Shown here: positions 4,896-5,117 of the stretch, piece after piece
Numbering within the stretch: the stretch's first letter is position 1
Layout of the letters: each line of letters starts with the position of its first letter
Origin: a virus
Taxonomy: Duplodnaviria; Heunggongvirae; Uroviricota; Caudoviricetes
Strand: one strand, 5' to 3'
Virus record (IMG/VR): IMGVR_UViG_2585427756_000015
DNA: 9,667 bases
Notes under the pieces: generated by a model
What the model was told of the DNA's origin: nothing
Database searches by the model: none
Seen by the model: the letters and a program-made list of their open reading frames with translations, nothing else
Program-made: the position numbers and the translations under genes

Positions 4896-5088
4896 GAATC
4901 CTCCCGGGCGGGATAATGTTGTGAGTCAGATAAGGAGCAGGCTGAAGTCCGGAAGTTACAGGACAATGGCAGAAGGGAGACTACAGCCCGCAATTCGAAA
5001 AAGACCGCGCAGTTGCGCAGAGTGATTACTATGGGGTATTATTCGCCAGCTGAAATATTACTTCACGTTTTATTGTTTATTCCTTGCC

Positions 5089-5117
5089 GCCCGCGTCTCC
5101 CAGCGCGGGCTTTTTTT
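5089..5117 (+). terminator. Strong plus-strand rho-independent terminator
   Basis: GCCCGCG-(TCTCCCAG)-CGCGGGC followed by TTTTTTT (5111-5117). The minus-strand side has no U-tract. Confidence 0.5.

Follow-up and report, generated by a model that had tools for sequence, protein, structure and literature searches.

A plus-strand small RNA unit in a lambdoid prophage corresponds to the Hfq-binding EcOnc08/EcOnc21/EcOnc42 RNAs of pathogenic Escherichia coli

INTRODUCTION

EcOnc08, EcOnc21, and EcOnc42 are RNAs recovered by Hfq crosslinking and analysis of cDNA (Hfq-CRAC) from prophages Sp4 and Sp15 of enterohemorrhagic Escherichia coli (EHEC) Sakai (Tree et al. 2014, PMC4104026). EcOnc08 (1179938-1180010, minus strand) and EcOnc21 (1180016-1180101, minus strand) are neighboring Hfq-CRAC peaks in Sp4 (PMC4104026), and EcOnc42 is the copy in Sp15, the Shiga toxin 1 (Stx1) phage, where it lies 3' of stx1AB. 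A size of ~271 nt was obtained for EcOnc08/21/42 by Northern blotting (Tree et al., PMC4104026). A small RNA (sRNA) of enteropathogenic E. coli (EPEC) E2348/69, E2348C_1409.E2348C_1408.IGR, was later reported using ligation and sequencing of interacting RNAs (RIL-seq), and the authors noted its homology to EcOnc08/21/42 (Pearl Mizrahi et al. 2021, PMC8550237); RNA-seq coverage gave a size of ~182 nt (NC_011601, minus strand, 1444797-1444978; Table S6, PMC8550237). Here we analyze a 9,667-nt stretch of DNA from a Caudoviricetes virus (IMG/VR record IMGVR_UViG_2585427756_000015), referred to as the window, in which a first-pass annotation made from the sequence alone had proposed a stand-alone sRNA gene of ~70 nt on the plus strand at 5013-5117.

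At this position, Sakai prophages harbor “convergent sRNA pairs,” composed of one late-strand RNA and one short antisense Hfq-bound RNA (AsxR, AgvB, or EcOnc03) (PMC4104026). AsxR and AgvB, in their published sequences, have the first base 6 nt past the -10 hexamer, and the 5' ends of EcOnc01 to EcOnc03 are primary starts determined by RNA ligase-mediated rapid amplification of cDNA ends (PMC4104026).

RESULTS

Identity of the unit with published prophage RNAs

As judged by sequence, the unit is the prophage's copy of the already known Hfq-binding sRNA gene reported as EcOnc08/EcOnc21/EcOnc42 in EHEC and as E2348C_1409.E2348C_1408.IGR in EPEC. It is thus a rediscovery of a known kind of prophage Hfq sRNA and not a new type of element. 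Its parts, all on the plus strand, are as follows.

5013-5018, plus strand: candidate -35 hexamer TTGCGC, identical in the window, Sp4, Sp5 (AsxR), Sp10 (AgvB1), Sp9 (EcOnc03), and two further loci, L169 and L211
5037-5042, plus strand: candidate -10 hexamer TATTAT, 18 bp past the -35 and kept in 32 of 33 distinct IMG/VR variants
5048-5117, plus strand: predicted short sRNA of 70 nt, its start deduced from the published AsxR/AgvB 5' ends; it matches the EcOnc08 Hfq-CRAC peak
5082-5088, plus strand: predicted seed CCUUGCC, unpaired in the fold and directly 5' of the terminator stem
5089-5117, plus strand: intrinsic terminator, with the hairpin GCCCGCGT/CTCCCA/GCGCGGGC at 5089-5110 and T7 at 5111-5117
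5021-5117, plus strand: putative exchangeable cassette (rest of the spacer, -10, sRNA body, and terminator), with 11-18% local identity to the AsxR/AgvB/EcOnc03 cassettes despite homologous flanks

The first-pass annotation had placed the hexamers, the spacer, the hairpin, and the T run at exactly these positions. The cassette at 5021-5117, which occurs once in the window, is identical to Sakai Sp4 at 92 of 97 positions (95%) and to Sp15 at 91 of 97 (94%). Over 5048-5117, two nucleotides separate the window from the homologue in EPEC prophage PP6. On the plus strand, 5009-5043 matches the complement of the Northern probe published for EcOnc08/21/42 at 30 of 35 positions; the best site on the opposite strand reaches 20 of 35. 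Synteny is also retained: in each case the RNA is antisense to the late operon, with the start of an esterase gene on one side and the 3' end of an STnc100-type RNA on the other. The window and Sp4 loci are collinear without indels, which places the EcOnc08 peak at window positions 5043-5115 and the EcOnc21 peak at 4952-5037 (through locus L003). The proposal of a stand-alone plus-strand sRNA gene is supported by near-identical copies that are Hfq-crosslinked in EHEC Sakai or an Hfq RIL-seq sRNA in EPEC.

Near-identical units are present in Sakai Sp4 and Sp15 and in EPEC PP6, and 69 phage records contain the full-length unit, including those of Stx2a, Stx2d, and VT1-Sakai (Stx1) phages. The full unit was found in 1067 of 5426 complete E. 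coli genomes (about one fifth), and it carries no annotation among the RefSeq matches listed. An exact 21-mer gave a single match in species-representative genomes, a scan that bears only on that exact 21-mer; the match, in a Desulfofundulus metagenome-assembled genome (L127, NZ_JBNATZ010000065.1), has no BLAST similarity to the window and is thus a chance match, not a homologue. In IMG/VR variant v51 (one locus among L004-L151), the sRNA is interrupted after ...CACGTTTTG by a sequence resembling the end of an insertion element (GGTAATGACTCCAACTTACTGATAGTG...), so that this copy is disrupted.

Rfam searches (whole window at E <= 1; 4896-5130 at E <= 10) assigned the RNA to no family and gave only subthreshold, terminator-driven matches, although they did identify its STnc100 partner. 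The OmrA/OmrB model (RF00079) reached 25.2 bits, against a gathering score of 40, over 5029-5117, mostly through the terminator and U-tail. Its 5' “seed” portion aligns to bases that precede the predicted start, and we treat the match as a chance resemblance. A literature search found no later functional study of EcOnc08/21/42 and no newer name for them.

Terminator and reading frame

The terminator stem consists of 8 pairs, 7 of them G-C, closed over a 6-nt loop. The first-pass annotation had counted it among the strongest in the window; it in fact ranks first of the 21 terminator-like sites (shuffled sequences gave 9.1 +/- 3.3 sites). The EPEC transcript has its 3' end at the same T run. Among variants, the stem shows one compensatory change from G-C to A-U, as well as U.G to C-G or U-A changes, and in a check of stem covariation 99.6% of cells were paired, compared to 14-56% when partners were slid. 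The Stx1-phage copy (L126, VT1-Sakai/Sp15, EcOnc42) and variants v22 and v47 carry an uncompensated C-to-A change in the 5' arm of the stem (GCCAGCG). The EcOnc42 terminator should, by its sequence, be weaker than that of the window copy.

The only ATG-initiated frame (5031-5150, 39 aa) passes through the sRNA terminator into the next hairpin, in agreement with the earlier statement that the interval holds no plausible open reading frame (ORF). A small protein would be the product if this frame were translated, and the presence of an ATG-initiated ORF is what speaks for it. Translation would have to cross two terminator hairpins, and the bases upstream of the ATG show no convincing Shine-Dalgarno sequence. 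The ATG itself is missing in the Sakai (Sp4, Sp15) and EPEC copies, which have ACTGTCGGA where the window has ACTATGGGG. Since the ATG is not conserved and 4-5-nt insertions that would shift the frame occur among variants, we reject this reading, whose probability we regard as negligible.

Promoter, 5' end, and size of the RNA

The loci in Sp5 (AsxR), Sp10 (AgvB1), Sp9 (EcOnc03), Sp4, and the window share a common layout of TTGCGC, an 18-bp spacer, a -10 hexamer (TAAAAT or TATTAT), a 5-nt discriminator, and the RNA. The window base equivalent to the AsxR/AgvB 5' end is A5048, which gives an RNA of 70 nt. The 7 nt immediately before the -10 vary freely among the IMG/VR variants. At L169, the spacer (of the AsxR type) and the discriminator are replaced, yet TTGCGC-18-TATTAT and the distance to the AGCTGAA start are kept.

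Both published sizes exceed 70 nt, and two further plus-strand features are relevant to them.

~4936-5117, plus strand: long form, equivalent to the ~182-nt EPEC RNA (mapped through locus L002) and containing the EcOnc21-equivalent Hfq peak at 4952-5037
4889-4917, plus strand: candidate upstream promoter ATGCCA-17-GATAAT, overlapping the nanS-p start codon and ribosome binding site (RBS) on the other strand

A different reading of the locus recognizes a long transcript only. It would have a 180-270-nt RNA start from a promoter at or inside the nanS-p 5' end, for example at 4889-4917, with TTGCGC/TATTAT being no promoter and the 3' 70 nt being either the part of the long RNA that binds Hfq and carries the seed or a product of RNase processing. 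The size of 182 nt estimated from EPEC coverage, which corresponds to ~4936-5117, agrees with this, as do the EHEC Northern size of ~271 nt obtained with a probe over 5009-5043 and the second Hfq peak, EcOnc21, at 4952-5037. The site at 4889-4917 is the sole promoter-like plus-strand site near the locus that scores 9/12, and it would give an RNA of ~194 nt, near the 182-nt estimate; its conservation is also accounted for by the nanS-p leader. TTGCGC/TATTAT occurs at chance frequency. StxS provides a precedent for a longer prophage transcript that is processed to a short Hfq-bound RNA. Against this reading, Sp5, Sp10, and Sp9 share the upstream region, and the published 5' ends of their sRNAs follow, by 6 nt, a -10 located at exactly this position. 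The -10 is kept while adjacent bases vary and is retained in L169 despite the new spacer, and the 194-nt form does not have an unusually stable fold (z = -1.17). The Northern probe is also unable to detect a short form: it lies at 5009-5043, upstream of 5048, so that a 70-nt species would escape it. We regard a long transcript as the only product as unlikely, though still to be taken seriously.

Nested long and short transcripts are most likely the actual situation, in which the upstream promoter at 4889-4917 could account for the long form. For the existence of a short 70-nt primary RNA in particular, we see an about even chance or somewhat better. The ~70-nt size and promoter put forward in the first-pass annotation thus stand in part: the positional match to the AsxR/AgvB promoter and the EcOnc08 peak at 5043-5115 favor them, and the published sizes of 182 and ~271 nt do not. 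That annotation had also named a longer transcript ending at the same terminator as the outcome that would speak against it, and this is partly what the literature reports, as the 182- and ~271-nt RNAs contain the hexamers.

Fold, seed, and targets

The 70-nt RNA folds with -17.9 kcal/mol (z = -2.86) into 41 nt of largely open, A/U-rich sequence, followed by the 8-bp terminator and U7. When 18 distinct variants are aligned, a weak 5' hairpin (nt 1-7 with 19-26) is also predicted, within the loop of which some variants have insertions of 4-5 nt. From 5' to 3', 5048-5117 thus comprises the weak 5' hairpin, a U-rich linker, the seed, the terminator, and the U-tail. CCTTGC is invariant among the variants that were retrieved by anchoring outside the body of the RNA.

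Targets of the EPEC homologue in RIL-seq share the motif GGCAAGG/GGCAGGG (PMC8550237), and this motif, GGCA[A/G]GG, is the reverse complement of window 5082-5088. The homologue is on the RNA2 (sRNA) side in every interaction row examined (PMC8550237). Its chimeras are most numerous with the 5' untranslated regions (5'UTRs) of cfa (767) and dppA (197) and with pcm (118), followed by perA (30), tir (29), espC (26), E2348C_3965 (16), and emrA (15) (PMC8550237). A sliding-window duplex search gave the expected 9-bp pairing CGGCAAGGG:CCUUGCCG at cfa -137..-127, with 5080-5090 on the sRNA side; RNAduplex on whole target fragments had given meaningless long-loop duplexes, and sliding windows were used instead. 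The features of the Hfq-dependent sRNA class are present, namely, the T7 tail, the 8-bp stem, and a single-stranded seed complementary to the common target motif, from which we infer an ordinary Hfq-dependent, trans-acting base-pairing sRNA.

The RNA could instead be chiefly cis acting: antisense to the late transcript, it would modulate how nanS-p, or the 3' end of STnc100, is processed or expressed. By position it is fully complementary to the late transcript, and conservation of the divergent arrangement also favors this. With its 3' end at 5117, a 271-nt RNA would start near 4847, ~48 nt inside nanS-p, and cover the RBS and start codon, while a form of 182-194 nt ends 29-41 nt short of the start codon and covers the leader. 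The short form, in contrast, does not overlap nanS-p, the late transcript is largely absent in the lysogen, and the homologue has abundant trans partners with a common motif. A mainly cis-acting role is improbable on these grounds.

The slot and its sRNA cassettes

The unit shares its slot, orientation, and half-promoter with AsxR, AgvB, and EcOnc03, which raises the question of whether it is likewise an anti-sRNA (sponge) that titrates or destabilizes a core-genome sRNA; dppA, the read-out of AgvB action, is among the RIL-seq partners of the homologue. Rfam gave no match to AsxR (RF02703), AgvB (RF02702), or Esr41 (RF02676) within 4896-5130 at E <= 10. The conserved ~42-nt 3' region of AsxR/AgvB (GTATCTCATGC...GCCCGAACCCAYTCGGGC) is absent from the unit under the same search, whereas the Sakai Sp5 control scored as expected (STnc100 at 208 bits and the convergent AsxR at 88.1 bits). 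Local identity is 11-18%. The RIL-seq partners examined are all mRNA segments (5'UTR or coding sequence) with no sRNA among them, and the homologue stands on the RNA2 side. A sponge is accordingly a very improbable reading, more so than a cis-acting antisense RNA.

Outside the cassette the loci are homologous. The left flank (4975-5020) has 85-91% identity to all Sakai loci compared, and the right flank, the STnc100 terminator, 82% identity to the AgvB1 locus. Phage BLAST matches fall into two sets, which are either full-length or end at window position 5020, and this split puts the cassette boundary within the promoter itself, after the -35 and ahead of the -10. Other cassettes occupy the slot at two further loci. 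L169 (minus strand; in that orientation its anchor is at 1746) has a 76%-identical body with the seed UCUUACC, an AsxR-type spacer, and the TTGCGC -35. L211 (plus strand, ~4598), found in an anchored scan, has a further type of body after the TTGCGC -35, with AAAAAT as the -10.

The homologous flanks, the unrelated interiors, and the L211 body suggest that whole cassettes are exchanged behind a shared half-promoter. It is thus tempting to view the slot as a modular site at which recombination swaps “-10 + sRNA + terminator” cassettes of unrelated sequence behind a fixed half-promoter, the latter lying in a flank that is conserved across lambdoid phages, with the EcOnc08 type being made as a 70-nt primary RNA and a longer antisense RNA; we hold this view tentatively and give it slightly less than an even chance. 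The families seen are AsxR/AgvB/EcOnc03, the EcOnc08 family with its divergent relative L169, and at least one more body (L211). If this is true, phages would retarget host regulation by cassette replacement under one common expression signal.

A terminator-like hairpin with a T run on the minus strand (5020-4996, CTGCGCAACTGCGCGG TCTTTTTCG) overlaps the -35 hexamer of the sRNA promoter and is also conserved at the loci of AsxR, AgvB1, and EcOnc03. Un-antiterminated read-through from STnc100 could be halted by this hairpin ahead of nanS-p.

Genomic setting of the window

The window corresponds to a lambdoid prophage late region whose genes are read on the minus strand.

8953-8258, minus strand: DUF968, RusA, and antiterminator Q
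8186-6607, minus strand: eukaryote-type Ser/Thr kinase (PF00069, 116 bits) and PP2C phosphatase (PF13672)
6120-5871, minus strand: three tRNAs
5795-5605, 5566-5393, and 5327-5118, minus strand: tandem STnc100 copies (RF02076), found with Rfam
5118-5327, minus strand: the STnc100 copy that is the convergent partner RNA (PasD/EcOnc05/EcOnc27 type; RF02076, 165.4 bits, E = 3.7e-38)
3042-4895, minus strand: nanS-p-like sialate O-acetylesterase (617-aa ORF; Pfam DUF1737, SASA, DUF6645), divergent from the sRNA
Late region, minus strand: holin, DUF1327, lysozyme, and Rz

The sRNA unit occupies the plus strand within the 222 bp that separate the esterase start codon (4895) from the 3' end of the last STnc100 copy, and the location given in the first-pass annotation is confirmed. 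The terminator of the copy at 5118-5327 adjoins the sRNA terminator. Two of the STnc100 units are strong (136 and 165 bits) and one is degenerate (30 bits, where the gathering score is 47); a single copy is present in Sakai Sp5, compared to three units in the window. Of the Northern probes used by Tree et al., those for EcOnc05 and EcOnc06 fit the copy at 5795-5605 at 35/35 and 34/35 positions, respectively.

The kinase and phosphatase ORFs overlap by 4 nt and are in the “moron” position downstream of Q, which is occupied by stx in Stx phages. A strong terminator-like hairpin lies just downstream of Q (8211-8188, minus strand, AAACCCGC...GCGGGTTT TTTG), and Rfam gives a weak Leu_leader match at 8287-8185 on the minus strand (27 bits against 50). 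The region at 8287-8185 is probably the PR'-tR' short transcript, at the position of StxS in Stx phages.

DISCUSSION

Taken as a whole, we consider it probable that the unit is a known prophage sRNA, Hfq-dependent and trans-acting, that is made in nested forms. In the mechanism we propose, the lysogen would transcribe the gene from its own sigma-70 promoter, with the -35 (TTGCGC) and 18-bp spacing of AsxR/AgvB, to yield the 70-nt primary RNA at 5048-5117, and longer forms (~180-270 nt) would share this terminator but have their 5' ends close to the start codon of nanS-p. Hfq would be held by the U-tail and U-rich linker, and the terminator-adjacent seed would pair with mRNAs of host and virulence genes. 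The sRNA gene would be traversed head-on by late, Q-antiterminated transcription.

Several observations weigh against this picture. Expression and Hfq binding are known from the homologues only. The placement of the CRAC peaks presumes that the 2014 coordinates equal those of NC_002695.2 at Sp4, and at Sp5 the 2014 coordinates are ~135-140 nt below NC_002695.2; we accepted the mapping at Sp4 because the EcOnc05 and EcOnc08/21/42 probes fall within their own peaks and the EcOnc08 peak comes within 1-2 nt of the end of the T run. The hexamer pair scores 8/12 (3/6 for the -35), below the 9/12 at which our promoter scan lists a site, and a relaxed scan at the 8/12 level found 56 plus-strand sites, against 44.7 +/- 7.1 in shuffled sequences. 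The hexamers are thus at chance level, and support for the promoter comes solely from comparison with the related loci. Both published sizes (182 and ~271 nt) are larger than 70 nt and include the proposed promoter. Covariation in the terminator stem is thin, consisting of a single compensatory event in closely related sequences. In the duplex search, shuffled sRNAs equaled the real one in 70 of 100 cases for cfa and in 25 of 100 for dppA; since shuffles reach similar energies, it is the motif published from RIL-seq, and not thermodynamics, that supports the pairing claim. A 2021 review gives both the targets and the function of EcOnc08/21/42 as unknown, and we found no reporter or knockout test of any target in the literature.

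The EPEC homologue contacts cfa, which acts in membrane cyclopropanation and acid resistance, as well as dppA and the virulence mRNAs tir, perA, and espC. Since the single Northern probe in the literature is located upstream of where the likely short form begins, the active species may have been assigned a wrong size and perhaps a wrong abundance. Sharing of the promoter with AsxR/AgvB suggests that the different sRNA cassettes of the slot are coregulated. The position of the probe and the common promoter leave the category unchanged, that of a known kind of prophage Hfq sRNA.

Comparison with known systems

The Pas sRNAs of EPEC are, like the window RNA, prophage Hfq sRNAs from the same late-region neighborhood (PMC8550237; bioRxiv 10.64898/2026.05.13.724894). 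PasD, which is related to STnc100, is encoded upstream of the esterase, and PasA downstream (PMC8550237; bioRxiv 10.64898/2026.05.13.724894). As an identity for the window RNA they were rejected, since no site in the window matches the PasA to PasD probes at more than 14-16 of 23-25 positions.

AsxR, AgvB, and EcOnc03 have the slot, the antisense orientation, and the convergence with an STnc100-type RNA in common with the window unit, each being part of a convergent pair 3' of PR', and the TTGCGC -35, the 18-bp spacing, and the distance from the -10 to the start are the same. Their RNA bodies, in contrast, are unrelated to that of the window. These RNAs are 51-60 nt in length, compared to the 70 nt predicted here, and while these anti-sRNAs have sRNAs as partners, the partners of the window's homologue are mRNAs.

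The EPEC RNA of prophage PP6 has a seed identical to that of the window, although its size from coverage is ~182 nt, compared to the predicted 70 nt. Unlike in the window, an insertion sequence element has deleted part of the upstream STnc100/tRNA region in PP6.

EcOnc08/21/42 were published at ~271 nt, whereas a 70-nt unit is proposed for the window. In the moron slot, the window prophage has the Ser/Thr kinase and PP2C phosphatase in place of stx. Relative to these RNAs, the window copy shows five spacer substitutions and a single one each in the body and the loop, and it has the same strand, slot, and terminator.

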